Origin: an uncultured Pseudomonadota bacterium
GTDB taxonomy: Bacteria; Myxococcota_A; UBA796; GCA-2862545
Direction: 5' to 3'
Assembly: GCA_913061235.1 (NCBI GenBank)
Contig: CAJXTB010000025.1
Span: 1 to 64,000 of the forward strand
Length of the DNA: 64,000 bases
The position numbers were made by a program, and so were the translations under genes. The number at the start of each line of letters is the position of its first letter. The stretch's first letter is position 1. Under the pieces are notes generated by a model that was not told the DNA's origin, made no database searches, and worked only from the letters and a program-made list of their open reading frames with translations. This document shows positions 6,904 through 49,172 of this stretch, in pieces.

Positions 6904-6982
6904 GTCAATTCCTGGCTCCCTCACCCCCTGTCCGAAACCTTGTGGGTCCGTTAGCAGGCCCGACATTGTCGACACTCTGTTG

Positions 6983-7012
6983 TTGACGCAAGACGCTCGA
7001 GACGCCTATATG
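6983..7012 (+). promoter_or_regulatory. candidate sigma70-type promoter for the 7042 lipoprotein gene
   Basis: TTGACG (6983-6988), 18-nt spacer, TATATG (7007-7012), about 30 nt upstream of the ATG. Confidence 0.3.
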
Positions 7013-7041
7013 GGCTGCTCGACTGCGTCTGGATTGGAGCG

Positions 7042-8205: not shown

Positions 8206-8257
8206 GCGCGTTTAGCGTTGTTTGAGGCGCCTTGAGGTGCCTTGATACCGAAGCCAA

Positions 8258-8632: not shown

Positions 8633-9402
8633 GCCTCGCCCTTGCGCTCAATACACAGAATCCACTTGCTGCTCTTCGCCGTGACGTCGCGGCCGTCGAA
8701 CCCTCCGGCCTCATGGGCAATGCGAAAGCCGCCCCAGTCGAGCAGCGCCAGCATCTCCTGGTAGTGGAACACGCGAAGGTCGAGCTTTACTTCCTCCGGG
8801 GTTTCTCCCTCGGGAATGTACGTGTACTCGACATGGTGGATCTGGGCGATGGGGTCGTACCAGGACTGTTCCCAGCTGTGGATGTTCTGGCCGGTGACCG
8901 GATGCGCGAAGTCGGTGTGTCCGTATTTTTGGCTCGGATCGCGGCCGTGCAGAATGGGATCTGGAAGGTAGCAGTCCAGGTAGAAGCGCCCGTCGGGTAG
9001 CAGTACGCTGTCGACTGAGGCGAGCAAGGCCAGCACATCACTGTGGTGGGTACAGTGGTGGATGGCATTGAAAGGCAAGAAGACGGTCCGGTAGGAACGC
9101 GGTCCCTTCAAGTGGCGAAAGTCGCCCTGACGCGTACGTATACGCGCTTGCACATGCACCGGTTCGGCGTCGACTTTTCGTTGGAGGTCGCGCAGCATGT
9201 CCTGCGAGCGGTCGATGCCGTGGACTTCAATGTTCGCGCGAGCGAGGGGAAGCGCAATCCTGCCGTTGCCGACGCCGAGCTCCAACACCGGTCCGCCGCG
9301 AGCTTTTGCGAGAGCGACATAGTGCTCAATGTCTGCGGCCAGGGCCGAATACTCAAGGTCGTAGAGCATTGGGTGCCGGTAGGCGAGATCTGACGCGTCC
9401 AT
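8629..9402 (-). CDS. class I SAM-dependent methyltransferase
   Basis: Motif I VLELGVGNGRIALPLA, then LLPDGRFYLD (post-I/II region). 257 aa. Divergent from the HAL-like pair with a 58-bp gap. Confidence 0.8.
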   Translation of the reverse strand: MDASDLAYRHPMLYDLEYSALAADIEHYVALAKARGGPVLELGVGNGRIALPLARANIEVHGIDRSQDMLRDLQRKVDAEPVHVQARIRTRQGDFRHLKGPRSYRTVFLPFNAIHHCTHHSDVLALLASVDSVLLPDGRFYLDCYLPDPILHGRDPSQKYGHTDFAHPVTGQNIHSWEQSWYDPIAQIHHVEYTYIPEGETPEEVKLDLRVFHYQEMLALLDWGGFRIAHEAGGFDGRDVTAKSSKWILCIERKGEA

Positions 9403-9460
9403 CCCGTCCCCCTTTGGTTATGCAGCCTGCCTATCGGGTGGACCGACTGAAGGACAGCGC

Positions 9461-11071: not shown

Positions 11072-12525
11072 CAACCCAAATTGATGGTGAGACCCTCACG
11101 ACTGCTGGTATTCATGCCATTGCAGGTGGTGCCGGGGCCTCGCTGAGTGCTTCGGCCCGCGCGCGAATGGAAGCGACCTCTCCCTTCGCGGAGCCCGTCC
11201 TACGTCAGAAGTGGGAGTGGTTGGTCGGTGGGGACGCCCCAGAAGACGACGCTGAGCTCATGACGTCGTTTGTCCACGGTCACTGTGCCGGCGTTGGAGC
11301 CCCGCTTCCTGCCCCTTTGGTTCGTGCGACGCTTGCTGCGCGTGCGAACGTTCTTGCGAAGGGCTTCTCAGGTGTCCGTCCGATGGTCGTAGACGGCGTG
11401 CTGCGGCTGCTGCAAGACAATGTGATTCCGAAAGTCCCACGCCAAGGGTCTGTTGGCACTGCTGGGTGTCCAGCCCTGTCGCATATGGCGTCAGTGGTCC
11501 TGGGATTCGGTGGAGAGGCGTGGGTCTCGGGTGAACTGCAGTGCGTTGGCACATCCTATTTGGAGCATGCACCGACCCAAAAGGAGGTGTTGTCCCTCAT
11601 CAACGGGTCCACGCTGACCACCGCTCTCGCCGCCATCGCGGTTGAGCGCAGTCGTCGCATCCTAGATGTCGCCATGAAGGCGGCAGCGATGTCCTTCGAG
11701 GTCGTCCGTGCCGACACCAGCTGCCTAGACGCCGACGTCTTGGCCCTGCGTGGACAGCCGGGCGGTGTCGTCGTCGCTGAACGGCTGCTTGCGGAGCTCT
11801 CCGGCAGCGGCATTGTGGGGGCTTGGCGTACGCCGGATGCCTTCTGTATTCGCTGTACGCCAGCGGTTCTGGGTGCCGCATACGACGCTGTTGAGGCCAC
11901 AGCAGCGATTATCAATCGCGAGCTCAACGGCGCCTGCGACAACCCCTTGGTACTGCCTGATGGGCGGGTCATTGAGGCCGGTAACTTCCACGCAGCGCCT
12001 ATTGCGCTCGCGCTCGACCACCTGAAGATTGCCATGGCGCAGGTCGCCGGGATCTCAGAGCGTCGAACCTTCCGTATGACGCATGGTCAACTCTCCGGAC
12101 TTCCCAGCTATCTGGCGGAATCCACGGGGTTGAACAGCGGTCTGATGCTCGCCCAGTACACGGCAGCGTCTCGAACTTCGGAGACCAAGGGCTTGGCGCA
12201 TCCGGCCTCGGTCGACACCATTCCCACGATTCAGCACCGCGAAGACCACGTCTCCATGGGGCCCGGCGCGGCGTACATGGCACTCGAGCTACTCGAAGCC
12301 ACCGCGGATGTTGTGGGCATTGAGCTTCTGTGCGGCGCACAGGGGGCGGACCTACACTTTGCTGCGGGCGAAGGTCCACTTGGTAAGGGTACGGCTGCGT
12401 CCCATGCCGCAGTTCGCGAGGTTGTACGCACCTGGGACCGTGACCGCGTGCTGCATCCGGACCTCGCTGCCATGTCTGCGCTGGTTCGCGGTACACGTCT
12501 GGTGGCAGACGGCCCAGCTTGGTGA
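11068..12525 (+). CDS. divergent HAL/PAL-family paralog lacking the MIO Ser and the Tyr loop (probable pseudo-enzyme or altered function)
   Basis: Retains NGACDNPLV, GNFHAAPIA, ISERR and QHREDHVSMG. Has GSVGTAGCPALSHM (Thr-Ala-Gly, one residue shorter) instead of ASG, and no YGxNTGFG loop. Start overlaps the upstream stop (ATGA). Confidence 0.75.
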   Translation: MTTQIDGETLTTAGIHAIAGGAGASLSASARARMEATSPFAEPVLRQKWEWLVGGDAPEDDAELMTSFVHGHCAGVGAPLPAPLVRATLAARANVLAKGFSGVRPMVVDGVLRLLQDNVIPKVPRQGSVGTAGCPALSHMASVVLGFGGEAWVSGELQCVGTSYLEHAPTQKEVLSLINGSTLTTALAAIAVERSRRILDVAMKAAAMSFEVVRADTSCLDADVLALRGQPGGVVVAERLLAELSGSGIVGAWRTPDAFCIRCTPAVLGAAYDAVEATAAIINRELNGACDNPLVLPDGRVIEAGNFHAAPIALALDHLKIAMAQVAGISERRTFRMTHGQLSGLPSYLAESTGLNSGLMLAQYTAASRTSETKGLAHPASVDTIPTIQHREDHVSMGPGAAYMALELLEATADVVGIELLCGAQGADLHFAAGEGPLGKGTAASHAAVREVVRTWDRDRVLHPDLAAMSALVRGTRLVADGPAW

Positions 12526-35680: not shown

Positions 35681-35899
35681 GTTTCCCTCCGTTCGCCTAC
35701 ATCACATGGGTGCCGCGCCGTGGTCGGAAGTGAAGGGGGAGCAGTGCCGTTTTGAGGTTTTTCCTCCGCCACCCGTCCGACCGATGAACCGCAACCCCAT
35801 GCAACAGACGGCGTCCCAACACTCCTTCGGCCGGTGCGAGCAAGGTTCTCCGTCCGCGACTGCTGCACGTGGTATTTTTGCCGCCGGGAGTACAGATTC

Positions 35900-38341
35900 A
35901 TGCGCATTCTCTGGTTGGTTGTTTTTGCTGCGGCATGCCGCGCCACCCTGCCTTCGGCAGACACGACTCAAGACGCAGATGGCGATGGCGTGCTGGTCGG
36001 TGACGACTGCAATGACACAGATCCTCTCGTCTTTCCGGGGGCTGTTGAGTCGTGCAACGGTGTGGATGACGACTGCAACGGTGCCATCGATGACATTGGC
36101 GAGGGGCAGGGCACAGCGCTGTACGCGGACTCCGACCAAGACGGCTACGGCGAGGGCGAGCCCATCTACGCGTGCGAAGCCTTTGATGGCGTCACCGAGC
36201 TTGCCGGCGACTGCGACGATTCAGACGGCTCCATCTTCCCCGGTGCACCAGAACCCGACTGCACCGACACCGTCGACCGCGACTGTGACGGCTTTGCCCC
36301 AGCTGAAGACGCCGACGAGGACGGCTTTGCCGCCTGCGAAGACTGCAATGATGACGACGCGAACGTGCGTCCGGGTGCGGTCGAGCGCTGCAACGGCGTG
36401 GATGACGACTGCAACGACCTGATCGACGATGATGCCGTGGATGCCCCCATCTGGTACCGCGATGGTGATGAGGACGGCTTTGGCGACGCAGACCAGACCG
36501 AGGCCGCTTGTGACGCCCCCGAGGGCTTTGTCGGGAGCAGCGCTGACTGCGACGACACCAACCAGGACATCCGACCCGGCGCTGACGAGACCTGCGATGG
36601 CGTGGATCAAGACTGCGACGGCGGAGTCGACGAGCAGTCTATCGACGCACCCCAGTGGTTCGCGGACTCCGACGAAGACGGCTTTGGCGGACCGCTGTCG
36701 GTGCGCGAGTGCTCAGCTCCAGCTGGCTTTCTGGCAGAAAGCACCGACTGCAACGACCTGGACCCGCTCGCCTTCCCGAACGCCCCCGAGACGTGCAACG
36801 GCGCCGACGATGACTGCGACCAAGTCGTAGACAACGACGCTGTCGACCCGACCACTTGGTATGCCGACCCGGACGGTGACAGCTGGGGCGATGCCTCCAC
36901 CGGCACCACCGCCGCTTGTGTGCTGCCTGACGGCTTTGCGGTGCGCAATGGCGACTGTGCCGAAGGCGACGCAGGGGTGAACCCGGGTGCTGTCGAGACG
37001 TGCAATGGCATCGACGACGACTGTGACCAAGACATCGACGAGAACGCCGTCAACCGCGACACGTTCTATGCGGACAGTGATGGCGACGGCTACGGCGACG
37101 CCCGCTTTGCCGTTCTCGCCTGTGCGCTTCCCGACGCACACGCGGACAATGCTGACGACTGCAATGACGGCCTGGCCAGCGTCAATCCCATGGCCCCCGA
37201 GCGCTGCAACGGCATTGACGACGACTGCAACAGCGAGATTGACGACGACCCCATTGACCTCGCGTCGTTCTACCGAGACACCGATGGCGACGGGTACGGC
37301 GTGGCAGGCGATGTCACCGAGGCCTGTGACGCGCCGGACGGCTACGTCGCAGATGCCGGTGACTGCGCTCCTGACGACCTGTCCGTGTTCCCGACAGCCC
37401 TCGAGCTGTGCAACGGCGTGGACGACGACTGCGACGACGAGATGGATGAGGACGCCGTCGACGCACCCTCTTGGTACGCGGACGTAGACGGCGACGGCTA
37501 CGGCGGCGAGCGCTTTGTGGAGGTGGCCTGCGACCAGCCGGAGGGCTTCTTCGCGGAGGCCGAGGACTGCGACGACCTCGATAGCGACGTCTCACCCGAG
37601 GCTGTGGACGTCTGTGGGGATGGTATCGACCAGGACTGTGACGGCGAAGACCGCACGGGGATCGATGGCGGCTCGCCTGAGTGCGCCGCCATCAGCTGCG
37701 CGGCGATCCTGGAGACTGACACCGAGAGCCCCAATGGTGCCTACTGGATCGACGCAACCGGGACGGCTCCCGTCGAGACGTGGTGCGACCAGACGGGTGG
37801 CGGCTGGACGCTCGCCTTTGTGAAGAACTCGGTCGACCAGAACGACTACGGCGACTTCGGCAGCGGCTACGTCCGTACCGAGAACCTTACCGTGGATCCT
37901 GCGGACGCCTCAGCAGCGTCGGTAGGCATGTCGGGCTGGATGGACATGAACGAGGCGTCTTGGACCGAGCTGCGCATTCACAGCTACCGAAACGGCACCG
38001 AGAGCTTCCGGAGCGACGTCATTGACCGCGCCTCCCTGCGCATCGACTTTGGTCAGGACGGCTACCTGTTGTACGGCGAGCACGGCTATTTTTGGTGCGG
38101 CGGCGACGCCAGCTACACGGACGCCGGCCGAGGCCAGGTCAATCGGCCATCTGGAGCCCCAGCGGACTGCAAGGGACACGGCAGTCTAGGCGACGGATGG
38201 GACTTTTCGCGCGTGACCCGCACGAACAGCGGCCTGACATTGTGTGGGGCGAGCGCCAGCCGATGGATGCATGACGCCTTTGCTGGCGTGTGGGTCTACT
38301 ACCCGAATGCAGGCGCCGCTCACGCCCTGTGGGTGCGCTGA
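35900..38341 (+). CDS. lipoprotein with ~12 tandem MopE-type Cys-rich 'putative metal-binding' repeats and a C-terminal fibrinogen-related-like domain
   Basis: Lipobox MRILWLVVFAAAC. Repeats of DxDxDGxxxxxDCDDxDxxxxPGAxExCNGxDDDCD. C-terminal SCAAILETDTESPNGAYWIDATGTAPVETWCDQTGGGWTLAF resembles the FReD core (SCxxIL..G.Y.I...VYCDM.TDGGGWTV). Confidence 0.75.
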   Translation: MRILWLVVFAAACRATLPSADTTQDADGDGVLVGDDCNDTDPLVFPGAVESCNGVDDDCNGAIDDIGEGQGTALYADSDQDGYGEGEPIYACEAFDGVTELAGDCDDSDGSIFPGAPEPDCTDTVDRDCDGFAPAEDADEDGFAACEDCNDDDANVRPGAVERCNGVDDDCNDLIDDDAVDAPIWYRDGDEDGFGDADQTEAACDAPEGFVGSSADCDDTNQDIRPGADETCDGVDQDCDGGVDEQSIDAPQWFADSDEDGFGGPLSVRECSAPAGFLAESTDCNDLDPLAFPNAPETCNGADDDCDQVVDNDAVDPTTWYADPDGDSWGDASTGTTAACVLPDGFAVRNGDCAEGDAGVNPGAVETCNGIDDDCDQDIDENAVNRDTFYADSDGDGYGDARFAVLACALPDAHADNADDCNDGLASVNPMAPERCNGIDDDCNSEIDDDPIDLASFYRDTDGDGYGVAGDVTEACDAPDGYVADAGDCAPDDLSVFPTALELCNGVDDDCDDEMDEDAVDAPSWYADVDGDGYGGERFVEVACDQPEGFFAEAEDCDDLDSDVSPEAVDVCGDGIDQDCDGEDRTGIDGGSPECAAISCAAILETDTESPNGAYWIDATGTAPVETWCDQTGGGWTLAFVKNSVDQNDYGDFGSGYVRTENLTVDPADASAASVGMSGWMDMNEASWTELRIHSYRNGTESFRSDVIDRASLRIDFGQDGYLLYGEHGYFWCGGDASYTDAGRGQVNRPSGAPADCKGHGSLGDGWDFSRVTRTNSGLTLCGASASRWMHDAFAGVWVYYPNAGAAHALWVR
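35950..37660 (+). repeat. intragenic tandem array of ~210-bp units encoding MopE-type Cys-rich repeats
   Basis: Recurrent tgcaacggcgtggatgacgactgcaac-type units about every 200-220 bp. Confidence 0.7.
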
Positions 38342-38350
38342 GGGGCGGTG

Positions 38351-39178
38351 CTAGCGAACGACGAGCACGTCTTTCGAAGAGGAGCGGACCAAGCGCTCGG
38401 CCGCTGAGCCCAGCACCAAGCGCGACAGACCCGTGCGACCATGGGTCGGTATGACGGTCAGGTCAATGCCCGCATCTTGAGCGTCGTGCGCAATGGCCTC
38501 TCCGGCGTTCATCTCGCCACGAACCAGAATGAAGCGTGGCAGGCCGTTGTGGCCCTCCGCCTCCAGTGCGTTCGCTAGCGCAATCTCAGCGCGTTCGTAC
38601 TCCGAGTCACCCTTTCCAGGGCCTTGGCCTCTGACCTTTGTCCACGGCAGGGCGTACACGGCGGAGGCATGCGCCTGTGGCAGGTGTTTGAGGACCCACT
38701 TGGCCCCGGCCAGGTTGGGTTCATTGATGTCGACTGGCAGGCGGACTTTGGTCTTGCCCTTGGTGGAGACCGGAAGGCCGCCTGGAGGCATGACCAAGAC
38801 GGGCACCGGGGCGTGGCGCATCATGCCCTCGGCCACCGAACCCAAGAACAGGCGACCGGTAGCGGTGCGATGCCGCGTGCCCATGGCCAGCACGTCGTAG
38901 GTCACCGCATGTGTAGCGAGTGCCGCGACAACGTCGGGTCCAGACAGGACGTGCCTACGGCCGCGGACTTCATCGGGAATCTCGAACAACAGGGCATCGA
39001 GCCATGCGCCCACCGCGGTGGTTCCAGTGCCCGCGTTTTCGTCCGGGGAACCCATTACGACGGTGACCAAGTCTAGGCGAGCGCCCAACAGTTTGGCCCA
39101 TGCGGCAGCGCGTGCGACGAGTCCAGATGGATTGTGTTCCGGTGCCACCGACACCAACAGTCTGCGTTCAAAGGACAT
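38351..39178 (-). CDS. universal stress protein, tandem UspA domains
   Basis: Two Usp halves. C-terminal motif PTHGRTGLSRLVLGSAAERLVRSSSKDVLVV and an earlier AMGTRHRTATGRLFLGSVAEGMMRHAPVPVLVM. Confidence 0.8.
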   Translation of the reverse strand: MSFERRLLVSVAPEHNPSGLVARAAAWAKLLGARLDLVTVVMGSPDENAGTGTTAVGAWLDALLFEIPDEVRGRRHVLSGPDVVAALATHAVTYDVLAMGTRHRTATGRLFLGSVAEGMMRHAPVPVLVMPPGGLPVSTKGKTKVRLPVDINEPNLAGAKWVLKHLPQAHASAVYALPWTKVRGQGPGKGDSEYERAEIALANALEAEGHNGLPRFILVRGEMNAGEAIAHDAQDAGIDLTVIPTHGRTGLSRLVLGSAAERLVRSSSKDVLVVR

Positions 39179-39308
39179 TGTGTCTCCTGGGAGCGTGAGA
39201 ACCTTCCCGGCTCCGTACGCTCAGCCTATCAGTGATTGATGCGCGCGTCTTTTGCAGGCGAATGCACACGTCGCCCGTGAAGTTCACCGGTTGGGGTACG
39301 GTGCCGGC

Positions 39309-40556
39309 ATGCAGACCCTTCGATCCTGGCAAGCCAAAGTCTTCATCGCGACCTGGCTCGCCTACGCGGCGTACTACTTCTCGCGAAAACCCTTCTTCGT
39401 AGCCAAGGCTCTGTTGGAGGAGACGTATGGCTGGGACACCGCGACACTAGGGGCTCTTGGCGCGGTTTACTTGGTCACGTACACGATTGGGCAGTTCTTG
39501 GCCGGCGGTATTGGCACCGCGCGCGGACCTCGGGCGCTGCTCGTCGGCGGCATGTTTGCCACAGCCATGGCGAACTTGGCTCTGGGCTGGGCCAACACAA
39601 CAGGAACGTTTGCGCTGTTCATGGGCATCAACGGCCTTGCGCAAGCGACCGGCTGGGCCGGCGGTGTGGGCACAATGGCCGCGTGGTTCAAGCGCGAGCA
39701 GCGCGGCACTATCATGGGCTTCTGGGCCACCAATTTCCAGGTCGGTGGCGTGCTCGCGACGGGTGCCGCCGCCTTCATGCTCGATGCCTATGGTCTGCAG
39801 TACGCCTTCATGGCGGGTAGCTGGGTCACGTTGATGGCGTGGGGGGTGGTGTTGTTGTGGCAGCGCGACACGCCCGAGGCCGTTGGACATTCCCTGCACG
39901 CGGAAGACTCGTCTACGGGCGAGGTCGGTGGTGGCGAGCCCGAGGAAGACGAACGGTGGACCTCGCGGCTCATCATCAACATCGGACTGATTGGCCTGTT
40001 CTACTTCTTCGTGAAGTTCATTCGATACGCGCTGTGGTCGTGGGCGCCGTACTTGTTGAGTACCGAGTACGGTCTCGACATTGACGACGCCGGGTACCTG
40101 TCGGTTGTGTTTGATGCCGCGGGCATCGCGGGTGTCATTGTGGCGGGTGTGTTGTCCGACCGCTTGTTCAACGGGCGCCGAACGACGGTCAGCGTCTTGT
40201 TTCTCATCGCCATGGTCGCCTCATGTGCGCTCCTGGCCTCACTCGGTCGGTCTGAGCTGCTGTGGTTCGGCATCTCGCTAGGGCTGATTGGATTCTCGCT
40301 GTATGGCCCCGACGCGTTGATGAGCGGTGCCGGCGCCATGGATGTTGGCAGTAGGCGTCAGGCTGTCGCTGCTGCTGGAATCATCAACGGCATGGGGAGC
40401 TGCGGTGCCGTTGTTCAGGAGTTTGTCCTTGGCACGGTGCTCAAGTCTACGGGGTCGGAGACGGTGTTCTTGATCTTGCTCGCAAGCGCCATGTTCGCGG
40501 TGCTGTGTTTGCTTGGCCTGTTGCTGCGCAATCGCATGGGGCTGGCGGACGTGTAG
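39309..40556 (+). CDS. MFS transporter of the organophosphate:Pi antiporter (GlpT/UhpC) family
   Basis: N-terminal FIATWLAYAAYYFSRKPFFVAKA resembles GlpT/UhpT helix 1. 12 TM helices. Start chosen at MQTLRSW. Confidence 0.7.
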   Translation: MQTLRSWQAKVFIATWLAYAAYYFSRKPFFVAKALLEETYGWDTATLGALGAVYLVTYTIGQFLAGGIGTARGPRALLVGGMFATAMANLALGWANTTGTFALFMGINGLAQATGWAGGVGTMAAWFKREQRGTIMGFWATNFQVGGVLATGAAAFMLDAYGLQYAFMAGSWVTLMAWGVVLLWQRDTPEAVGHSLHAEDSSTGEVGGGEPEEDERWTSRLIINIGLIGLFYFFVKFIRYALWSWAPYLLSTEYGLDIDDAGYLSVVFDAAGIAGVIVAGVLSDRLFNGRRTTVSVLFLIAMVASCALLASLGRSELLWFGISLGLIGFSLYGPDALMSGAGAMDVGSRRQAVAAAGIINGMGSCGAVVQEFVLGTVLKSTGSETVFLILLASAMFAVLCLLGLLLRNRMGLADV

Positions 40557-40621
40557 TGGCTAGCCCGTTGTTTGGGGGTGGCGACTGGCGCGAAGAGCGG
40601 GGGGGTGACTAGGGCGCCCGT

Positions 40622-41671
40622 ATGAATCCGACTCAAGTGCTGATCCCAACTCTCGTTCGCATCAAGCCGGGCGCGCTCAAACGGATGGGCACCTACGCCC
40701 GCCGGATGGCGCTGCGGCGAGTCGTTGTCCTTCAGAGCGAAGGTCTGCCCGAACGCTTCTTTCAGCAGATTGAGCAGTCGCTGAAGGAGCAGGGGGTCCA
40801 GGTTGCGTTGCGCCTGACCGCGCACGATGCGTCGTTTGAGGCAAGCACCGACATCTTCACGCAGATGCCGAGGCACATTGATGGAGTGTTGGGTCTGGGA
40901 GGCGGCAAAGCACTGGACGTGGCGAAGTACGTCGCTTTTTTGGCTCACCTTCCCTACATTGCGGCGCCGACCTCCCTGTCCAACGATGGTTTTTGCAGCC
41001 CACAGAGCAGCCTGACCCTCGACAATAAGCGTCGTTCCATCCATGCGGCGCTGCCCGCCGCCGTCATTGTTGACACGCAGGTCTGCCTGGATGCGCCGTC
41101 GGCCTTGTGGTGCTCAGGCGTGGGCGACCTGGCCTCGAAAGTCACGGCAGTGAATGACTGGAAGAGAGCGTTTCACGCGGTTGGCACTCCGGTGAATGAC
41201 TTTGCCGCGCTGCTCTCGGATGCCACGGTCTTTCAGTTTATCGCCCGCCCGGTGCGTGACCTGGAGGGAGTGCGCCTGCTGGCCACGGCGCTCATGCTCA
41301 ATGGGGTGGCCATGGAGATCTGCGGCTCATCCCGTCCCGCAAGCGGCAGTGAGCACCTCATCTCACACGCGCTCGACGGAATCTCCGCACGTCCACGACT
41401 ACACGGCTTGCAGGTGGGCGTGGCCACTTACCTGATGAGTCACTTGCAGCAGCAGGGAACCGAGCGCCTGGGAGCGCTGTTTCGGAACACGGGCTTTTGG
41501 GATGAAGTGGCTCGCGACCCGTTTGACCGTGATGAGTGGGAGGCTGCTTTGCGACTCGCGCCGTCGATCAAGCCGAACTTTCACACCGTTCTGAGCGAGG
41601 GAGACCACATGAGTGAGTGTTTACGCTTGATACGGGAAGATCCCGAGCTGGTGCGCTGCTTCAACCGCTGA
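40622..41671 (+). CDS. glycerol-1-phosphate dehydrogenase (AraM/EgsA)-like member of the Fe-ADH/DHQS-like superfamily
   Basis: LGLGGGKALDVAKYVA (GGGKxxDxAKY signature of G1PDH/AraM). GSEHLISHALD metal-binding region. 349 aa. Confidence 0.6.
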   Translation: MNPTQVLIPTLVRIKPGALKRMGTYARRMALRRVVVLQSEGLPERFFQQIEQSLKEQGVQVALRLTAHDASFEASTDIFTQMPRHIDGVLGLGGGKALDVAKYVAFLAHLPYIAAPTSLSNDGFCSPQSSLTLDNKRRSIHAALPAAVIVDTQVCLDAPSALWCSGVGDLASKVTAVNDWKRAFHAVGTPVNDFAALLSDATVFQFIARPVRDLEGVRLLATALMLNGVAMEICGSSRPASGSEHLISHALDGISARPRLHGLQVGVATYLMSHLQQQGTERLGALFRNTGFWDEVARDPFDRDEWEAALRLAPSIKPNFHTVLSEGDHMSECLRLIREDPELVRCFNR

Positions 41672-41785
41672 GCGTCCGTGGTCTGTATCGGTACTACACA
41701 ATCGCGCAGGCCGACCTTGTGCATCGCCTGAGTCGCTCCTCTCGCTTCGAACCGGAGGACGACCTGTGGTATTCGGGGTTCCTAT

Positions 41786-43165
41786 TTGATGGGAGACACG
41801 ATGGATCCGCGACAGGTCAAGACCGCAGAACAAGCCAAGGCAATCATCGAAGAGCGAGGATTGACGCATGTAAAGGTTGGCGTCTTCGACAACGACTGCG
41901 TGTTGCGCGGCAAATACATGTCGAAGGACAAGTTCCTGTCGTCCATTGAAGACGGCTTCGGCTTCTGCGACGTGGTTCTCGGCTGGGACAGCAACGACGA
42001 GCTTTACGACAACACCACCTTCACCGGCTGGCACACGGCCTACCCCGATGCCCCGGTGCGCATCTTGCTCGACACCTGTCGCAGCTTGCCCATGGAAGGG
42101 GACATGTTGTTCTTCCTGTGCGAGTTCGCAGACCGAGCAGAAGTTGTGGGGCCGCGCGCCATGCTGCGTCGTGTGCTGAAGAAGTGTGCTGACATGGGCT
42201 TTACGGCCTTTGGAGCCATGGAGTTCGAGTTCTTTTTGTTCGACGAGACCCCGCACTCCATTCGTGAGAAGGACTACCGCAACCTCAAGCCCATCACGCC
42301 TGGTAATTTCGGCTATTCGGTGCTTCGCAGCAGTGTCTGGGGCGAGTTCTATGCTGAACTGTTGGACACCTGCGAGAAGATGGACATGCCCATCGAGGGC
42401 TTGCACACCGAGACGGGCCCTGGCGTTCTTGAGGTAGCGATTGGTGTCGACGGCGTGCTCGCTGCGGCCGACAAGGCGGCGATGTTCAAGACCTTCGCCA
42501 AGGTTGTCGCCCAGCGCCAAGACCTGATGGCCACCTTCATGGCCAAGTGGTCGGCGGACCACGCCGGGCAGAGCGGTCACATTCATCTGTCGCTTCAAAA
42601 AGACGGCGAGACGGCCTTTCACGACCCGGCCGGTCCGCACAGGATGAGTCAGACCATGCAGCATTTCCTCGCCGGCTGTCAGACCTACCTACCCGAGACG
42701 CTGGCAATGGTGGCGTCTACCGTCAACAGCTACAGCCGCTTGGTGCCGGGTGCGTGGGCGCCGACCAGCGCCACATGGGGAGTGGAGAACCGGACCACGG
42801 CCCTGCGCGTGATTCCCGGCAGCGCAAAGAGCCAGCGCATCGAGTACCGAATTGCCGCTGCAGATGCCAACCCGTACCTCGCCATGGCTGCGGCTCTAGC
42901 GGCTGGCCTCGCCGGTATCGAGCAGGAGCTGACACCTTGGCCAGAGGTTGAGGGCAACGCGTACACGCAGAGCTTCGACCCTGCGTTGTCGCTACCGTCC
43001 ACGCTCACTGAAGCCGCCATGCGTCTGAAGAACAGCGAGATGGCACGCAGTGTGTTTGGCGCCGACTTTATCGACCACTTCGCCGCCTCCCGAGAGTGGG
43101 AAGAGCGGCAGTTCCGCAAGGCAATCACGGACTGGGAGCTGCGCCGCTACTTCGAGATCATCTGA
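41786..43165 (+). CDS. glutamine synthetase family protein (type I-like; gamma-glutamyl-amine synthetase candidate)
   Basis: GS catalytic-domain motifs: MEFEFFLFD, HTETGPGVLEVAI, GHIHLSL, NSYSRLVPG..AP, RIEYRIAAADANPYLAMAA. Confidence 0.8.
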   Translation: MMGDTMDPRQVKTAEQAKAIIEERGLTHVKVGVFDNDCVLRGKYMSKDKFLSSIEDGFGFCDVVLGWDSNDELYDNTTFTGWHTAYPDAPVRILLDTCRSLPMEGDMLFFLCEFADRAEVVGPRAMLRRVLKKCADMGFTAFGAMEFEFFLFDETPHSIREKDYRNLKPITPGNFGYSVLRSSVWGEFYAELLDTCEKMDMPIEGLHTETGPGVLEVAIGVDGVLAAADKAAMFKTFAKVVAQRQDLMATFMAKWSADHAGQSGHIHLSLQKDGETAFHDPAGPHRMSQTMQHFLAGCQTYLPETLAMVASTVNSYSRLVPGAWAPTSATWGVENRTTALRVIPGSAKSQRIEYRIAAADANPYLAMAAALAAGLAGIEQELTPWPEVEGNAYTQSFDPALSLPSTLTEAAMRLKNSEMARSVFGADFIDHFAASREWEERQFRKAITDWELRRYFEII

Positions 43166-43218
43166 CCGCGCTTGTGCGCAAAAAGTGGTTAAAACGGCGC
43201 CCTCACAGGGGGGCGTTG

Positions 43219-44595
43219 ATGACGTCGTTTCAAGCGGTGTCGCCAGTCGACGGACGCGTTTTTGTAGACCGTCCGTTCGCGGACCTGGCCCAGGTTTCCG
43301 AGCGGCTTGATGCTGCCCGTCTGGCTTTCTCCACATGGCGGGCGTTGTCCCTGGCCGAGCGAACGGCCGCAGTGCGTCGGCTGATCGATGCTGTCGAGGG
43401 GCGCTCCGAAGTCCTGGCAGACGAGCTCACCCTGCAGATGGGACGTCCGCGGCGTTTTTCAGCAGGTGAGATCGAAGGCTTTTGCTTTCGCGGCCGAACC
43501 CTGTGCGACCTCGCCACGGAAGCGTTGGCAGATGTGGTTCCGCCAGCGAAAGACGGTTTTCAGCGGTTCATCCGCTACGAACCCTTGGGCGTTGTGCTGA
43601 TCTTGGCACCCTGGAATTACCCGTGGCTGACCGCCGTCAACGCGCTCGTTCCGGCACTACTCTCCGGAAACACGGTGTTGCTCAAGCACTCCGAGCAGAC
43701 CCCGCTTGTGGCCGATAGGCTGATTGAAGCCGCCGAAGCCGCGGGTCTTCCAGCCGGTGTGTTCCAGACGGTCGACATGTCCAACTACACCACTGCTGCC
43801 GTCGTCCGCGACCCACGTGTCGCCTTTGTGAGCTTCACCGGTTCGGTCGAAGGCGGCCGCGCCGTCCACACCGCTGCCGGGGGCTCGTTCAAGGGCGTTG
43901 CTCTGGAGCTGGGTGGCAAAGACCCCGCCTACGTGCGCTCGGATGCCGACCTGGACCACGCGGTGCCCAACCTCGTTGAGGGTGCGCTGTTCAACAGTGG
44001 GCAGTCGTGCTGTTCGGTCGAGCGGATCTACGTGGACGACGGGCTGTACGACGCCTTTGTTGAGCGCTTCGTACAGGAAGCCCGGACCTGGATTGTTGGG
44101 GACCCTTCGGCCCCAGGGACCTTGTTGGGACCGATGGTTCGCGCTCGTAATGCAGACGCTGTTCGGGCACAGGTGGACGCCGCCATCGCGGCCGGTGCAA
44201 CCGCTCATCTGCCCGTCGATAGTGACGCGGGCTCCGCCTATCTCGGCCCACAGGTTCTCACTGACGTCACCGAAGACATGGCCATCATGGCCGAAGAGAC
44301 CTTTGGACCGGCAATTGGCATTGTCAGGGTCAGCGGAGATGACGAGGCTATCGAGCGCATGAACGCGTCGCGCTACGGCTTGACCGCGTCGATCTGGACC
44401 CGCTCGACAGACGCCGCCCGCGACCTAGGTGGGCGACTCGAGACCGGAACGGTGTTCGCCAACCGCTGCGACTACCTGGACCCTGAGCTTGCCTGGGTGG
44501 GTGTGAAGGACAGTGGCCGAGGCGTCTCACTCTCACGCCTTGGCTTTCAAGCCTTCACTCGTCCCAAGTCCTTTCATCTGCGAGACCACGCATGA
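43219..44595 (+). CDS. NAD(P)-dependent aldehyde dehydrogenase
   Basis: ILAPWNYPW, FTGSVEGGR, ELGGKDP (catalytic Glu), NSGQSCCSVER (catalytic Cys), EETFGP. Confidence 0.85.
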   Translation: MTSFQAVSPVDGRVFVDRPFADLAQVSERLDAARLAFSTWRALSLAERTAAVRRLIDAVEGRSEVLADELTLQMGRPRRFSAGEIEGFCFRGRTLCDLATEALADVVPPAKDGFQRFIRYEPLGVVLILAPWNYPWLTAVNALVPALLSGNTVLLKHSEQTPLVADRLIEAAEAAGLPAGVFQTVDMSNYTTAAVVRDPRVAFVSFTGSVEGGRAVHTAAGGSFKGVALELGGKDPAYVRSDADLDHAVPNLVEGALFNSGQSCCSVERIYVDDGLYDAFVERFVQEARTWIVGDPSAPGTLLGPMVRARNADAVRAQVDAAIAAGATAHLPVDSDAGSAYLGPQVLTDVTEDMAIMAEETFGPAIGIVRVSGDDEAIERMNASRYGLTASIWTRSTDAARDLGGRLETGTVFANRCDYLDPELAWVGVKDSGRGVSLSRLGFQAFTRPKSFHLRDHA

Positions 44596-45758
44596 GCTTG
44601 TCATCACACACGGGTACCTGGAATTACCCGACCCCTACGCGCTTTGGCGCAGGTCGTATCGCTGAGCTCCCTGCGGCATGCCGCGAGCTCGGGATGTCGC
44701 GTCCGTTGCTGGTGACCGACCCGGGTCTGGCTGAGCTGCCCATCACAGCGCAAGCCGTGGCCATCTGTGAAGCGGCAGGACTTCCGGTCGCCGTGTTCTC
44801 CGACATTCAGGGCAACCCGGTTGGCAGTGATGTGACGCGCGGCGTCGACGCGTTCAAGCAGGGCGGCCATGACGGCGTCATCGCATTTGGTGGCGGCTCT
44901 GCGCTGGACGTCGGCAAGGCCATCGCGCTGATGGCCGGTCAGACGCTGTCGCTGTGGGACGTCGAAGACATCGGAGACAACTGGACCCGCGTAGATGCAA
45001 GCGCCATGGCGCCCTGCGTCGCGGTTCCAACCACCAGCGGAACGGGCTCAGAGGTCGGTCGCGCTTCGGTCATCACCAAGGAAGACGAGCACCGCAAGGT
45101 CATCATCTTCCACCCGGGAATGCTGCCTGGTCGCGTGTTGTGCGACCCCGAGCTGACCGTGGGACTGCCGGCGAAGCTGACCGCCGCTGTGGGAATGGAT
45201 GCGCTGTCGCACAACCTCGAAGCGTACTGTGCACCTGGCTTTCACCCCCTCGCGGACGGCATTGCGGTCGAGGGTATGCGCCTGGTGTTCCGCTCACTGA
45301 GGGCTGCTGTCGCCGATGGCACCGATCTCGCTGCGCGCAGTGACTTGATGGCCGCGTCCCTGATGGGAGCGACCGCGTTTCAGAAGGGACTGGGTGGCAT
45401 GCACGCCATGTCACACCCCATCGGTGCGGTACTTGGCGCCCATCATGGCCTGACCAACGCCATTGTGATGCCGTACGTGCTGCGCTTCAACGCGCCGGCC
45501 ATTCGTGACCGTCTCACCGACCTGGCGCGTGCCCTGGACCTTGAGATCACCAGCGAGATGGGCCTCATCGACAGCGTTCTGGAGCTGCGCGAGGACATCG
45601 GCATTCCGCACACCTTGGCGGCGGTGGGGGTCACCGAGGCACATGCCACCTCGCTTGCACCCGCTGCCCTGGCAGACCCGAGCGCCGGTGGCAACCCCAT
45701 CCCGCTGACCGTGGCGTCGCTAGAGCAACTCTTCCGGGCTTCCCTCGCAGGGCTGTAG
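44592..45758 (+). CDS. iron-containing (group III) alcohol dehydrogenase
   Basis: GVIAFGGGSALDVGKAIAL, metal-binding His region GMDALSHNLEAY, HAMSHPIGAVLGAHHGLTNAI. ATGA overlap with the ALDH gene. Confidence 0.85.
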   Translation: MSLSSHTGTWNYPTPTRFGAGRIAELPAACRELGMSRPLLVTDPGLAELPITAQAVAICEAAGLPVAVFSDIQGNPVGSDVTRGVDAFKQGGHDGVIAFGGGSALDVGKAIALMAGQTLSLWDVEDIGDNWTRVDASAMAPCVAVPTTSGTGSEVGRASVITKEDEHRKVIIFHPGMLPGRVLCDPELTVGLPAKLTAAVGMDALSHNLEAYCAPGFHPLADGIAVEGMRLVFRSLRAAVADGTDLAARSDLMAASLMGATAFQKGLGGMHAMSHPIGAVLGAHHGLTNAIVMPYVLRFNAPAIRDRLTDLARALDLEITSEMGLIDSVLELREDIGIPHTLAAVGVTEAHATSLAPAALADPSAGGNPIPLTVASLEQLFRASLAGL

Positions 45759-45764
45759 TCCCGG

Positions 45765-46616
45765 CTACGAGGACGTATTCAGGCCTGCAATCGCCAGTAC
45801 TGCACACCGGCTGCGCAGGTCGTCGACAAACGCTCGTACGCGCGCGGACCGGCGCAGATCTACGTGAATCAAGAGCCACAGTCCCGTGCCTTTGTCGGGG
45901 TGTTCATCGCGCATAGGGACCAGCTCTGGCGGGGTCTGTGCGCAGTAGGTTGGCAGAACCCCCTGATACGGCCCTGTGCGAAGGAGGTCGCGTGCATCTG
46001 CCACACTGTCGACGGTGAAGGCGGTCTGCTCGGAGTCGCTCGGCCGCTGCCAGTCCCGCACTGCGGGGATGCGGTCGAAGCCGCGAAGTACGACCCAGCG
46101 GGCGTCTGAGCCGGCTGTCGGGTTGCGGTAGTGGCCCCATGGAACCGTGGCTAGGCGGTGCGCAATGGCGTCTTGTGGTGGGACGGCGGTGATGCGCAGG
46201 GCCACGTCAACATCTCGGCGAAGGTCAAGCAGCGAGGTCGACGCTCGGATGTCGAGGTCGATGGTTGGGCACGTCTCGCGAAATGCGATCAGCAGGGGCG
46301 CCATGGTTGGGAGCAGCGTGACCGGAAGCGTCAGGCGGACGGTGCCCTGGGCGTTCCGGTCGTGGCCGACCACAGCACGCTGTAGCGACAGGATGGCCTC
46401 TGTAGCGGACTCTGCGTGAGGTAAGGCCTCTTCGCCAACCGCTGTCAGCTGGTACCCACGGGGCGTCTTGGTGAACAGTCGCGCGCCGAGCGCTTCTTCC
46501 ATGGACGCAATGCGCCGGTGCACCGTGGAGGCGTTGAGTTCCAGCTCATCGGCGGCTGCCGCCAGTGTTCCCCGCCGTGACACCGCCTCGAACGCACGCA
46601 CCGCTTCCCAGTCCAT
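45765..46616 (-). CDS. LysR-family transcriptional regulator
   Basis: N-terminal HTH MDWEAVRAFEAVSRRGTLAAAADELELNASTVHRRIASMEEALGARLF. 283 aa. Divergent from the pirin gene. Confidence 0.85.
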   Translation of the reverse strand: MDWEAVRAFEAVSRRGTLAAAADELELNASTVHRRIASMEEALGARLFTKTPRGYQLTAVGEEALPHAESATEAILSLQRAVVGHDRNAQGTVRLTLPVTLLPTMAPLLIAFRETCPTIDLDIRASTSLLDLRRDVDVALRITAVPPQDAIAHRLATVPWGHYRNPTAGSDARWVVLRGFDRIPAVRDWQRPSDSEQTAFTVDSVADARDLLRTGPYQGVLPTYCAQTPPELVPMRDEHPDKGTGLWLLIHVDLRRSARVRAFVDDLRSRCAVLAIAGLNTSS

Positions 46617-46633
46617 CTTGCACTCCTGCAAGA

Positions 46634-46670
46634 CTATCTATCAGATTTTCACCTTTTCGTGCGTGGATAG
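46634..46670. promoter_or_regulatory. candidate LysR-type operator (inverted repeat CTATC-N27-GATAG) in the lysR/pirin divergent region
   Basis: CTATCTATC...GGATAG dyad within the 77-bp intergenic gap, AT-richer than its surroundings. Confidence 0.3.
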
Positions 46671-46693
46671 ACGTTCTAAGAGGGGCGTAACCA

Positions 46694-47404
46694 ATGGAGA
46701 GTGCAATGAACGCCCAGATTCGACCGTCCTCCGCTCGCGGCCACGCCAACCATGGCTGGCTCGACTCGCACCACAGCTTCAGCTTTGGCTCGTGGCACAA
46801 TCCAAACGCCATGGGCTTTGGTCCGCTTCGCGTCATCAACGAGGACGTTGTGCAGCCGGGTCGTGGCTTTGGCACCCACCCACATCGGGACATGGAGATT
46901 GTGTCGTACGTTCTGTCCGGTCACCTTGGACACCGCGACAGTGAGGGCAATAACGGCGTCATCCGTCCTGGTGAGGTTCAGCTTATGAGTGCTGGAACCG
47001 GTATTACGCACAGCGAGATGAACGGCTCGAACAGTGAGCCCGTGCACTTCTTGCAGATCTGGCTGTTCCCAACCGAAGCCAAGACCAAGCCACGCTACGC
47101 TCAGAAGGATTTTGGGCAGCAGCCGGGGCTCACCCTCGTTGCAAGCCCAGACGGGCGCGACGGTTCGCTTGTGATTGGCTCGAATACCGACATCCACCGC
47201 GCTCTTCTCACTGCCGGCGCGTCGCCCACAGTCGCCCTGCGTCAGCAACACGCCTACGTGCACGTTGCCTCCGGTACGCTGGATGTGAACGGGTCACGAT
47301 TGACTGCCGGCGACGGCATGTCCCTATCCGACGTCAGCACGCTCTCGCTTACCGCCCACGATGACGTCAACGCGCTGATCTTCGACCTACCACGAGGTTC
47401 CTAA
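46694..47404 (+). CDS. pirin-family protein (cupin)
   Basis: HGWLDSHHSFSFG...GFGTHPHRDMEIVSYVL..GVIRPGEVQLMSAGTGITHSE matches the pirin N-terminal cupin metal site. Confidence 0.85.
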   Translation: MESAMNAQIRPSSARGHANHGWLDSHHSFSFGSWHNPNAMGFGPLRVINEDVVQPGRGFGTHPHRDMEIVSYVLSGHLGHRDSEGNNGVIRPGEVQLMSAGTGITHSEMNGSNSEPVHFLQIWLFPTEAKTKPRYAQKDFGQQPGLTLVASPDGRDGSLVIGSNTDIHRALLTAGASPTVALRQQHAYVHVASGTLDVNGSRLTAGDGMSLSDVSTLSLTAHDDVNALIFDLPRGS

Positions 47405-47931
47405 TGGCTCGCATTCTCACCCTCTCCGGCAGCCCGCGCGCTGCATCCAACAACACCGCAGTGCTCCACACCCTCGCTGAGCTCGCTCCCGATGGCGTGG
47501 TCTTGGAGCGCTACGACTACAGCGATGTCCCGCTGTACAATCCCGACATTGAACGGCCCGAGTCCGTCGACCGCCTGATCGCCGCAATCACCGCCGCCGA
47601 TGGTGTGATTATCGCAACACCCGAGTACAACTACTCGGTACCTGGGGTGCTGAAGAATGCCCTGGATTGGGCCAGTCGTCCTGCCTACAAATCCTGCTTC
47701 TTCGGCAAGAAGACCGGTGTCGTCTCGGCTGCCGCGAGTATTGTCGGCGGCGCACGCGCACAGGCTCACCTCAAGACCATTCTGCTCGGAATGGGGTCTC
47801 CGGTCTTTGCCTACCCAGAAGTCCTCGTGCCGCAGTCGTTCAACAAGGTCGAAGACGGACGGGTCACCGATGCGACCAGCCTCAACGCACTCCAGGGCTT
47901 TGTAGACAGTTTTGCCCAGTGGGTCGATTAG
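47404..47931 (+). CDS. NADPH-dependent FMN reductase family oxidoreductase
   Basis: MARILTLSGSPRAASNN...DGVIIATPEYNYSVPGVLKNALDWAS. TAATG overlap with the pirin gene. Confidence 0.8.
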   Translation: MARILTLSGSPRAASNNTAVLHTLAELAPDGVVLERYDYSDVPLYNPDIERPESVDRLIAAITAADGVIIATPEYNYSVPGVLKNALDWASRPAYKSCFFGKKTGVVSAAASIVGGARAQAHLKTILLGMGSPVFAYPEVLVPQSFNKVEDGRVTDATSLNALQGFVDSFAQWVD

Positions 47932-47990
47932 GGGCCCGTCTCAAAGGGCCTGACGGGCGGCGAGCGGATTGCCCGCCCGCCCAACGTCGA

Positions 47991-49172
47991 CTACGGCGCG
48001 TCTGTGCAGATGGGGGACACCTGAACGCTGTCATTGATGGTGCAGCCATTCTGGCAGACGCCGCGGTTGTCCCCGTTGGGAACATGGTACGTGATGATGT
48101 TCTGCCAGCTCGTCACGCGTTGGATGCCGCTGGACACATTGCAGCTCCAGTAGGGCTGGCCCAGAACGACTGCACTCCAGGCGGATGCATCATAGCCACT
48201 GCCGTAGACGTTTGGATCGCACGAGACCGGGCGTAGGTCCGCCGCAAGACAGATGTCTCGGTACCAGGCGCGAAGGTCTCCTGCCGGCATGTTGCGGTAC
48301 TCCATCTGGTAGACCGTCTGCCCGCCCCCGGAGTGTTGGTTGATGATCACAAAGTCGCGGGCCTGTACTGCCCAGGAGGTCGAGTAGTTGGGAGCGGTGA
48401 CTGTTGCTGAGTACACCTCGCTATCGATGCTGGATGCGGTCAGTCGAAGGGTGAGCGACTGGCCTTCGGTGACGCTCGCCGACGTGGCCCAGGAGGCTCC
48501 CCCGTTGATGGACAGCTGGGGGCTACCCTGACCGGACACCGAGATGACGATGGAGTCCTCGAATCCGGAAATGGTCACCGGAGAGGACACTGCGAGCTGC
48601 CCGAGACCGCTGTTCGTGCTGCTGAACGTGAAGGGGTCGGGTGTGTTGTCCGTAGTAGAGAGCGGATTGAACGAGGTCCCATTGCACACCTCCAGCCTCT
48701 GCTGAACAGCGTTCCAGCGCAGTGCGCCGGCATCGGAGCTGTCCTCACAGACGTCGGAGAGCCCAGGCCCGCCACCACCGACGAGGGGAGAGCCGCCTGC
48801 GATGACGGTTCGGGGGCCAAGCTCCGGCCCGCTATCTACGGAGATGCCAAGCCAGCGATTTTCGCCGGGCTCAAAGACGCCGTCAGGAATGCCGTTGATG
48901 TTGGTGAAGCCGAAGGTTGCGGCGTCTCCGGTTCCGAGCAGTACCGAGTACGTGCCCCCGGCCAGAATGCTGGAGTGCGACTCGCGGTACAGGGGGGTGC
49001 TTGCCGCGAATGTCTCGTAGATCGAGAAGGTTAGGCCAACCGTGCCCACAATCGGCACCCCCGTCGCATCGTTCAGTCGACCTTGACTTGGAAGGATGGA
49101 CGTCGCGGAGATGTCCTGGGCCAAGGCACCTACGGGGCAGAGTAGGGCGATCAGGAGCGTAAATCGGAGCAT
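47991..49172 (-). CDS. secreted hypothetical protein
   Basis: Signal peptide MLRFTLLIALLCPVGALAQ. 393 aa, Gly/Ser-rich. Eight Cys in the C-terminal third. Confidence 0.5.
   Translation of the reverse strand: MLRFTLLIALLCPVGALAQDISATSILPSQGRLNDATGVPIVGTVGLTFSIYETFAASTPLYRESHSSILAGGTYSVLLGTGDAATFGFTNINGIPDGVFEPGENRWLGISVDSGPELGPRTVIAGGSPLVGGGGPGLSDVCEDSSDAGALRWNAVQQRLEVCNGTSFNPLSTTDNTPDPFTFSSTNSGLGQLAVSSPVTISGFEDSIVISVSGQGSPQLSINGGASWATSASVTEGQSLTLRLTASSIDSEVYSATVTAPNYSTSWAVQARDFVIINQHSGGGQTVYQMEYRNMPAGDLRAWYRDICLAADLRPVSCDPNVYGSGYDASAWSAVVLGQPYWSCNVSSGIQRVTSWQNIITYHVPNGDNRGVCQNGCTINDSVQVSPICTDAP

Follow-up and report, generated by a model that had tools for sequence, protein, structure and literature searches.

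This report deals with a stretch of DNA of 64,000 nucleotides (referred to below as the window) from an uncultured bacterium of the Myxococcota_A lineage (GenBank assembly GCA_913061235.1, contig CAJXTB010000025.1), and more specifically with six adjoining genes at positions 39309-46616. These encode a transporter of the major facilitator superfamily (MFS), a dehydrogenase resembling glycerol-1-phosphate (G1P) dehydrogenase (G1PDH), a ligase resembling glutamine synthetase (GS), an aldehyde dehydrogenase (ALDH), an iron-type alcohol dehydrogenase (Fe-ADH), and a LysR regulator. The region is best explained as a composite of four units, being an ethanolamine-type operon of the ligase, ALDH, and Fe-ADH genes (the trio), an ancestral MFS partner of this operon, an inserted G1PDH-like gene, and a separate LysR cassette, a reading to which a probability of about 0.7 is assigned. 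A preliminary description of the window had presented the genes as a LysR-controlled five-gene module, a view that is not retained, as both the G1PDH-like dehydrogenase and the LysR gene are lineage-specific additions. The features that carry the argument are the following.

39309-40556, plus strand: MFS transporter of 415 aa, resembling the organophosphate:phosphate antiporter (OPA) family (PF07690; top NCBIfam model TIGR00881)
40622-41671, plus strand: G1PDH-like NAD(P)-dependent metal dehydrogenase of the Fe-ADH_2 type, 349 aa (PF13685 and PF00465; top model PRK00843; motif GLGGGKALDVAKY)
41801-43165, plus strand: predicted GS-like gamma-glutamyl-amine ligase of 454 aa (PF00120)
43219-44595, plus strand: ALDH of 458 aa, predicted gamma-glutamyl-aminoacetaldehyde dehydrogenase (PF00171)
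44592-45758, plus strand: Fe-ADH of 388 aa, predicted gamma-glutamyl-ethanolamide dehydrogenase (PF00465 and PF25137)
45765-46616, minus strand: LysR regulator, with LysR-family helix-turn-helix and substrate-binding domains
40557-41745, no strand: lineage-specific insert of 1.19 kb with the G1PDH-like gene as its sole content (blastn against the sister lineage, locus L190)

Genes were called on basis of an open reading frame listing combined with family scans (Pfam, and NCBIfam with its cut-offs). The six genes, their coordinates and family assignments, and the 4-nt ATGA overlap of the ALDH and Fe-ADH genes were confirmed as previously described, and the ATG at 39309 as start of the MFS gene is consistent with the N-termini of its homologs. 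Spacers of 65, 129, and 53 nt separate the MFS from the G1PDH-like gene, the latter from the ligase gene, and the ligase from the ALDH gene, respectively. The arrangement is identical on all contigs that carry the exact G1PDH-like protein, and the combination of MFS, G1PDH-like gene, and trio was seen only in one species-level lineage. The NCBI labels of the MFS protein cluster and of a close ligase cluster (P0121, 96% identical) are those of proteins from metagenome-assembled genomes of Myxococcota.

The order of the trio is conserved far beyond chance. The survey encompassed 88 loci with relatives of the ligase, taken from metagenomes, genomes, and plasmids, and was extended with nine further close relatives to a total of 97. 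Among the 88 loci, an ALDH gene follows the ligase gene in 68 and an Fe-ADH gene is present in 61, nearly always in the order ligase, ALDH, Fe-ADH, while a hydrolase of the class-I glutamine amidotransferase (GATase) type is encoded just downstream in 18, including those of Nitrincola and of a Legionella lytica plasmid. In a number of loci (11), the recurrent upstream neighbour is a gene on the same strand for an APC permease that resembles the ethanolamine permease, which is in line with the ethanolamine-type reading. The plasmid-borne pPABY1 cluster of Salipiger abyssi has a related composition, and consists, in this order, of genes for an N-formylglutamate amidohydrolase (FGase)-like protein, GS, ALDH, Fe-ADH, GlyA, and L-serine ammonia-lyase (sdaA). 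The ALDH and Fe-ADH of the window are 54% and 56% identical to their Salipiger counterparts, which is as close as the Legionella proteins of their own subfamily (50% and 56%), and the ALDH shares only 32% identity with PuuC. As the ligase is only 36% identical to that of Salipiger, the downstream steps are orthologous in both types of cluster, and the ligases represent paralogous subfamilies.

The ligase of the window is a member of a widespread and highly conserved subfamily that has no experimentally characterised member. Its relatives number in the thousands, of which the best 120 are 66-96% identical, and the subfamily spans 62-96% identity across at least 88 loci in Myxococcota, Alpha-, and Gammaproteobacteria. 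The protein remains under every NCBIfam equivalog cut-off, with scores of 228 versus 429.15 for GlnA (TIGR00653), 197.8 versus 469.6 for type III GS, and 204.5 versus 650 for the PuuA type. Alignment with GlnA revealed that the residues for metal, ATP, and glutamate are kept (E129, E131, E212, E220, H269, H271, R321, R339, R344, E357, and R359), and that the ammonium site is changed, with F in place of Y179, A in place of N264, and W in place of E327 in the flap, positions that are also altered in IpuC, PuuA, and Protein Data Bank (PDB) entry 5dm3. Identities amount to 39% with IpuC, 34-36% with 5dm3, 31% with PuuA, and 26% with Escherichia coli GlnA, and the ligase forms a clade separate from IpuC, PuuA, GlnA, and the type that comprises the Salipiger ligase and 5dm3. 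The latter entry, which groups with the Salipiger ligase, is probably Csal_0679. Judged by these residue and family patterns, the protein is no true GS and is predicted to be a ligase of the amine type, and the earlier designation as GS-like rather than bona fide GS can be upheld on basis of the altered ammonium site, the unreached GlnA cut-off, and the separate clade.

The enzyme set and gene order of the trio, i.e., ligase, ALDH, and Fe-type ADH, are those of a described route in which ethanolamine is converted via gamma-glutamyl-ethanolamide and gamma-glutamyl-glycine to glycine (PMC10132767, PMC6529630). The successive enzymes of this route are ethanolamine gamma-glutamylase, gamma-glutamyl-ethanolamide dehydrogenase, gamma-glutamyl-acetaldehyde-amide dehydrogenase, and gamma-glutamyl-glycine amidohydrolase (PMC10132767). 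Its presence in Phaeobacter and Chromohalobacter is described in PMC10132767 with reference to Vetting et al. 2015, the named clusters being Csal_0678 of Chromohalobacter salexigens and MED193_10026-10056 of Phaeobacter sp. (ETAGA, GAADDH, GETADH, and GGAH) (PMC10132767, PMC6529630), while in Streptomyces coelicolor GlnA4 is accompanied by SCO1611, SCO1612, and SCO1615 (PMC6529630). Besides the gene order, the intact catalytic residues and altered ammonium pocket of the ligase agree with these systems, as does the orthology of the ALDH and Fe-ADH to those of the Salipiger cluster, which is linked to glycine by running into glyA and sdaA. Hence, the reading of the trio as an amino-alcohol gamma-glutamylation pathway of the ethanolamine/GlnA4 type is in line with both its conserved order and the described architecture, and the earlier statement that the genes could not be assigned to a described pathway no longer applies to the trio. 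Differences exist as well, since the ligase represents a separate subfamily, the hydrolase that accompanies this subfamily belongs to the class-I GATases and not to the FGase type (with none encoded in the window), and an OPA-like MFS transporter takes the place of the TRAP-type EtoX or the EAT permease of the known clusters.

In the isopropylamine (Ipu) and putrescine (Puu) pathways, as proposed for the trio, an amine is gamma-glutamylated at the expense of ATP, after which the tagged intermediate is oxidised and then hydrolysed, and the ligases of all of them have an aromatic residue in place of the flap residue E327. In comparison with Ipu, however, the ligase is only 39% identical to the gamma-glutamyl-isopropylamide synthetase IpuC and the P450 monooxygenase of the Ipu cluster is not present; in comparison with the E. 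coli Puu pathway (PuuA, PuuC, PuuD), identities are 31% to PuuA and 32% to PuuC, the score for the PuuA-type model is far from its cut-off (204.5 versus 650), and a PuuB-type oxidase is not present.

In the proposed pathway, the ligase would attach the amine to the gamma-carboxyl group of glutamate at the expense of ATP, after which the Fe-ADH would oxidise the alcohol group of gamma-glutamyl-ethanolamide to the aldehyde, and the ALDH would convert the aldehyde to gamma-glutamyl-glycine. Glycine and glutamate would then be set free by a hydrolase from outside the window, which in relatives is of the class-I GATase or the FGase type, and the upstream OPA-like MFS transporter, an ancestral partner of the trio in this clade, would bring in the substrate. 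Two side observations relate to these steps. Seven loci encode an M81 (MlrC-like) metallopeptidase downstream of the trio (e.g., L145, 7821-9302), which may substitute for the usual hydrolase in cleaving the gamma-glutamyl product. Furthermore, locus L091 of Stella sp. ATCC 35155 (5470-12228) encodes a ligase of the same subfamily (69% identity) and an Fe-ADH without ALDH, surrounded by genes for an acyl-CoA synthetase, an enoyl-CoA hydratase, and an acyl-CoA dehydrogenase, which suggests a different downstream route.

Comparison with the sister lineage (loci L190-L193) sets the G1PDH-like gene apart from its neighbours. Amino acid identities with this lineage are 93% for the MFS, 96% for the ligase, and 91% for both ALDH and Fe-ADH, at 86.5% nucleotide identity. 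In a blastn comparison with L190, homology ends at the stop codon of the MFS gene and restarts at approximately position 41746, which leaves 40557-41745 as specific to the window. The MFS and ligase genes of loci L177 and L178 are separated by only 51 and 137 nt, respectively, and no relic of the G1PDH-like gene was detected in L190, L191, L177, or L178. Moreover, the gene is absent from all 88 trio loci and from the nine further close relatives, including those with a ligase identity of 81-96%. In the sister lineage (L190, region 1-8950), the MFS-ligase spacer is occupied by 7.8 kb with three genes on the opposite strand that encode FG-GAP or hexapeptide-repeat proteins. Since the window and L190 carry different inserts at this position, the spacer is a variable insertion site, with the MFS gene directly before the ligase gene as the ancestral state. 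Also present in the L190 spacer are two degenerate repeats of the MFS 3'-end (73% and 39% amino acid identity), a pattern that would fit a series of insertions, each with a duplication of the gene end; a comparable duplication flanking the insert was not found in the window. The composition of the G1PDH-like gene (GC 0.613, GC3 0.731) is indistinguishable from that of its neighbours in a test for foreign origin.

The relatives of the G1PDH-like protein point in the same direction. Genomic loci of 80 relatives with 38-64% identity were inspected with flanks of up to 6 kb, covering Verrucomicrobiota, Planctomycetota, Myxococcota, Desulfovibrionales, Acidobacteriota, and others. A ligase gene, an Fe-ADH gene, an adjacent ALDH gene, and a gene for this MFS transporter are absent from all 80 loci, and neighbours from an amine cluster were found in 0 of 82 loci overall. 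Neighbour clustering of the 80 loci identified a HAD phosphatase gene as the sole conserved neighbour, which directly precedes the dehydrogenase gene in the same orientation in approximately 60 of them and is of the HAD-IB (MtnX-like) type in the close group (55-64% identity) and of the AraL-like HAD-IIA type in the distant group (approximately 40%). Genes for G1P-using lipid enzymes (GGGPS/PcrB type) were not among the conserved neighbours within these flanks. The closest relative (84% identity) is solitary and lies beside a gene for a glycoside hydrolase of family GH9. The arrangement and distribution of these sequences indicate that the G1PDH-like gene is a recent single-gene insertion, or passenger, rather than a conserved pathway component. 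The preliminary description had included it as such a component, to be expected in related genomes, which does not agree with its absence next to the 97 other trio loci and the absence of amine genes near the 82 loci of its own relatives. As a separate observation, the dehydrogenase of the close group, found in Verrucomicrobiota, Planctomycetota, Myxococcota, Acidobacteriota, and Desulfovibrionales, is highly conserved, and its gene nearly always forms a two-gene unit with a preceding HAD-IB gene in the same orientation (L007-L057; e.g., 9195-9998 and 10001-11041 in L008).

At the protein level, the dehydrogenase shares several features with the sn-G1P dehydrogenases, i.e., archaeal EgsA and Bacillus subtilis AraM, including the PF13685 fold, the GGGK motif, the Asp/His/His metal ligands, and the SRPxSGSEH motif, which it has as SRPASGSEH in common with the archaeal G1PDH 5fb3. 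Residues D169, H245, H249, and H261 occur without exception in 20 homologs, as does the GGGK motif, and they match the aligned positions of 5fb3 and 3ce9, so that the expectation that the product of the gene at 40622 would retain the metal ligands of G1PDH was borne out. In addition, the distant relatives (approximately 40% identity) follow an AraL-like HAD-IIA phosphatase gene, which echoes the adjacent araL-araM gene pair. Unlike EgsA and AraM, however, the protein does not reach the equivalog cut-off of PRK00843 (214.9 versus 413 bits), its closest solved protein is 3ce9, and its relatives lack lipid-synthesis genes as conserved neighbours in the inspected flanks. Entry 3ce9, an uncharacterised clostridial protein labelled as glycerol dehydrogenase, matches at 237 bits, versus 141 and 136 bits for the archaeal G1PDHs 5fb3 and 4rgq. 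For one homolog with a G1PDH annotation, experiments demonstrated that it functions as a glycolaldehyde reductase without notable activity on G1P or dihydroxyacetone phosphate (DHAP) (PMC9700705). The haloarchaeal type of glycolaldehyde reductase was considered as identity of the protein in the window and rejected, as the corresponding model covers only the N-terminal half (50.7 bits).

The LysR gene is part of a second block that differs between the lineages, the features of which are listed here.

46694-47404, plus strand: pirin (family scan)
47404-47931, plus strand: FMN reductase (family scan)
45738-47987, no strand: second lineage-specific block of 2.25 kb, with the LysR, pirin, and FMN reductase genes (comparison with L190-L193)
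46616-46633, no strand: palindrome of 18 bp without mismatch, TCTTGCACTCCTGCAAGA, at the start of the LysR gene and in the LysR-pirin intergenic region, candidate LysR operator

The LysR gene is oriented tail-to-tail with the Fe-ADH gene, with 6 nt between the two stop codons, and head-to-head with the pirin gene, which is followed by the FMN reductase gene. In the sister lineage, a TMEM43-like gene replaces the entire LysR/pirin/FMN reductase block, and homology resumes at a conserved gene for a protein of 393 aa (47991-49172). No LysR gene accompanies the trio in L181, L182, L183, and L089, while L177 ends inside the Fe-ADH gene and is uninformative for the downstream side; in Nitrincola, an unrelated LysR gene is located upstream, in the classical position. 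With up to two mismatches allowed, no further copy of the palindrome was found in the window, including the regions upstream of the MFS, G1PDH-like, and GS genes. Most likely, the LysR gene belongs to a separately acquired LysR-pirin-FMN reductase cassette and regulates pirin. Of the role previously proposed for LysR, its position on the strand opposite to the five genes stands, whereas control over these genes is not supported by its convergent orientation, its pairing with pirin, the absence of the block from the sister lineage with 96% ligase identity, and the lack of an upstream operator copy. The LysR-pirin intergenic region also contains, at 46634-46670, an inverted pair CTATC(N23-27)GATAG as a further candidate operator.

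The MFS transporter is a genuine and recurrent partner of the trio, which it adjoins in five other lineages, and the proposed co-occurrence of an OPA-type transporter with these genes is thereby confirmed. The MFS gene directly precedes the ligase gene in L177 (identities of 77% for the MFS and 81% for the ligase) and in L178 (82% and 87%), and also lies before it in L182 (54% and 72%), while it follows the trio in L181 (56% and 68%) and L183 (53% and 69%). A mutual comparison of the small unassigned proteins encoded beside the MFS or trio genes in L177, L182, L183, and L089 revealed no common family. The MFS-ligase spacer of L178 was observed to hold about seven tandem copies of CAAATCT (1384-1520).

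With the antiporters GlpT, UhpT, PgtP, and SLC37, the transporter of the window shares the MFS fold and the substrate-binding arginines of GlpT in transmembrane segments 1 and 7, together with K46; R26, K27, and R239 are invariant in the family alignment and correspond to R45, K46, and R269 of the aligned E. coli GlpT. Its top relatives of solved structure are a rice glycerol-3-phosphate transporter-like protein, SLC37A2, and GlpT (1pw4). It differs from these antiporters in sharing only 24% identity with GlpT, in the replacement within its family of GlpT residues K80 (by Q) and H165 (by F), in missing all curated cut-offs (200.4 versus 407.75 bits for OPA TIGR00881, 145.1 versus 632.55 for GlpT, and 132.4 versus 564 for UhpC), and in being a partner of an amine-catabolic trio rather than of glp or uhp genes. 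The transporter is probably an importer of the substrate of the trio, and its cargo could, speculatively, be ethanolamine as such or else phosphoethanolamine, which would be exchanged for phosphate; the retained phosphate-binding arginine pair of GlpT suggests the latter option.

This option can be extended to the proposal that the transporter is a phosphoethanolamine:phosphate antiporter, and that together with the trio it serves the dedicated uptake and burning of the phosphorylated headgroup of phosphatidylethanolamine. It is brought forward because the arginine pair is kept, K80 and H165 of GlpT are lost, and a gene for an Exo_endo_phos protein is found upstream of the ligase gene in L181, and it is an unlikely, admittedly speculative, extension of the composite reading. 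The headgroup might stem from, for example, the membranes of prey of a myxobacterial predator, with an unlinked phosphatase releasing ethanolamine, and the G1PDH-like gene, as a late addition by insertion, could allow oxidation of glycerol-phosphate substrates of the same carrier. The Exo_endo_phos-family protein of L181 (2925-3998), encoded directly upstream of ligase, ALDH, Fe-ADH, and MFS genes in this one locus only, has a hydrophobic N-terminus and may be a phosphoesterase that releases the headgroup. A smaller point of value is that, in one clade, the ligase subfamily is linked to a carrier of the organophosphate type in place of an ethanolamine permease, which provides a testable hypothesis on the uptake of phospholipid headgroups.

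Several observations weigh against the composite reading with ethanolamine as substrate. With the ligases of systems that have been characterised or named (5dm3, the Salipiger type, and IpuC), that of the window shares no more than 34-39% identity, and we therefore infer its ethanolamine specificity from the partner genes. Among these partners, the APC permease that is encoded upstream on the same strand in 11 related loci scores just below the curated cut-off of the ethanolamine permease model TIGR00908 (359.6 versus 381.75 bits). No hydrolase for gamma-glutamyl-glycine was found in the 64-kb window by tblastn with five GATase/PuuD-type, two FGase, and one M81 peptidase queries; as the hydrolase gene adjoins the ligase gene in only 18 of 88 related loci, its absence here is a common situation. 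Other partners that were searched for in the whole window and not found are the HAD-IB and HAD-IIA phosphatases, the EAT permease, E. coli GlpQ, and the Exo_endo_phos protein of L181. The MFS loci were in part preselected as overlapping with ligase matches, so that the frequency of their linkage is a biased estimate, and one MFS homolog (67% identity) has no neighbouring trio. Finally, the five genes share one strand with short spacers and without a predicted terminator at their junctions, and the inserted dehydrogenase could be co-expressed and retained for a linked function. A terminator scan of 38300-48000 was uninformative, as it yielded sites at the frequency expected from shuffled sequence and none at gene junctions, and because no junction terminator is predicted, the G1PDH-like gene may be co-transcribed with its neighbours. 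A promoter scan of the same region, equally uninformative, detected no promoter-like sites, and an Rfam scan for a riboswitch that could name the ligand gave no match at E-values up to 1.

The most serious competitor, although still an unlikely one, assigns the trio another amine as substrate, such as 1-amino-2-propanol, 3-aminopropanol, alaninol, serinol, or an amine with an anionic group that would suit an OPA-type carrier. Such a substrate would fit the low identity (34-39%) that sets the ligase subfamily apart from 5dm3, IpuC, and the Salipiger type, the class-I GATase that replaces the FGase type as hydrolase, the variation in transporter partners (two APC types and the OPA-like MFS), and the Stella locus that lacks ALDH and is found among acyl-CoA genes. 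The downstream enzymes, however, are as near to the glycine-linked Salipiger cluster (54% and 56%) as to their own subfamily in Legionella (50% and 56%), which argues for the same gamma-glutamyl intermediates, and the commonest dedicated transporter neighbour is ethanolamine-permease-like. A single integrated pathway for a phosphorylated amino alcohol or a glycerophospho-headgroup under LysR control, along the lines of the preliminary description, in which the MFS transporter imports the phosphate ester, the G1PDH-like enzyme acts on a glycerol-phosphate moiety with conversion of sn-G1P to DHAP, and the amino alcohol that is released is oxidised by the trio, would account for the shared strand, the spacers of 65, 129, and 53 nt without junction terminator, the GlpT arginine pair, the metal ligands of G1PDH along with an SRPASGSEH motif as in 5fb3, and the arrangement that is fixed in every contig with the exact dehydrogenase. 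It is nevertheless considered improbable, as the dehydrogenase gene is missing from the 97 other trio loci, even at 81-96% ligase identity, resides within the 1.19-kb insert, and has relatives that are accompanied by a HAD phosphatase gene and in no case by the genes found here. Moreover, LysR is convergent and part of a separate variable cassette, the G1PDH cut-off is not reached (214.9 versus 413), and an annotated homolog proved to be a glycolaldehyde reductase (PMC9700705). The resemblance of the transporter to GlpT and SLC37, that of the dehydrogenase to G1PDH, and the 65-nt spacer between their genes could also indicate that these two form their own unit for uptake and oxidation of glycerol phosphate beside an unrelated amine operon. 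This is very improbable indeed, given that the two genes are adjacent in none of the 82 loci of G1PDH-like relatives, that the MFS gene adjoins the trio without the dehydrogenase in five other lineages, and that the dehydrogenase arrived as a single-gene insert.

Under the composite reading, the novelty of the region is modest, since the trio is an already described and common kind of operon, and the new parts are the uncharacterised ligase subfamily and the OPA-type transporter partner. Its main value is corrective, in that an apparent new link between archaeal-type G1P chemistry and amine catabolism resolves into a known kind of ethanolamine-type operon that has received two recent insertions. 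Further upstream, at 35834-38341, the window encodes a large, secreted-looking protein that is typical of Myxococcota and bears no relation to the amine cluster; it contains repeated CNGxDDDCD motifs, and PF11617 (copper-binding MopE) was assigned on the matching contig.

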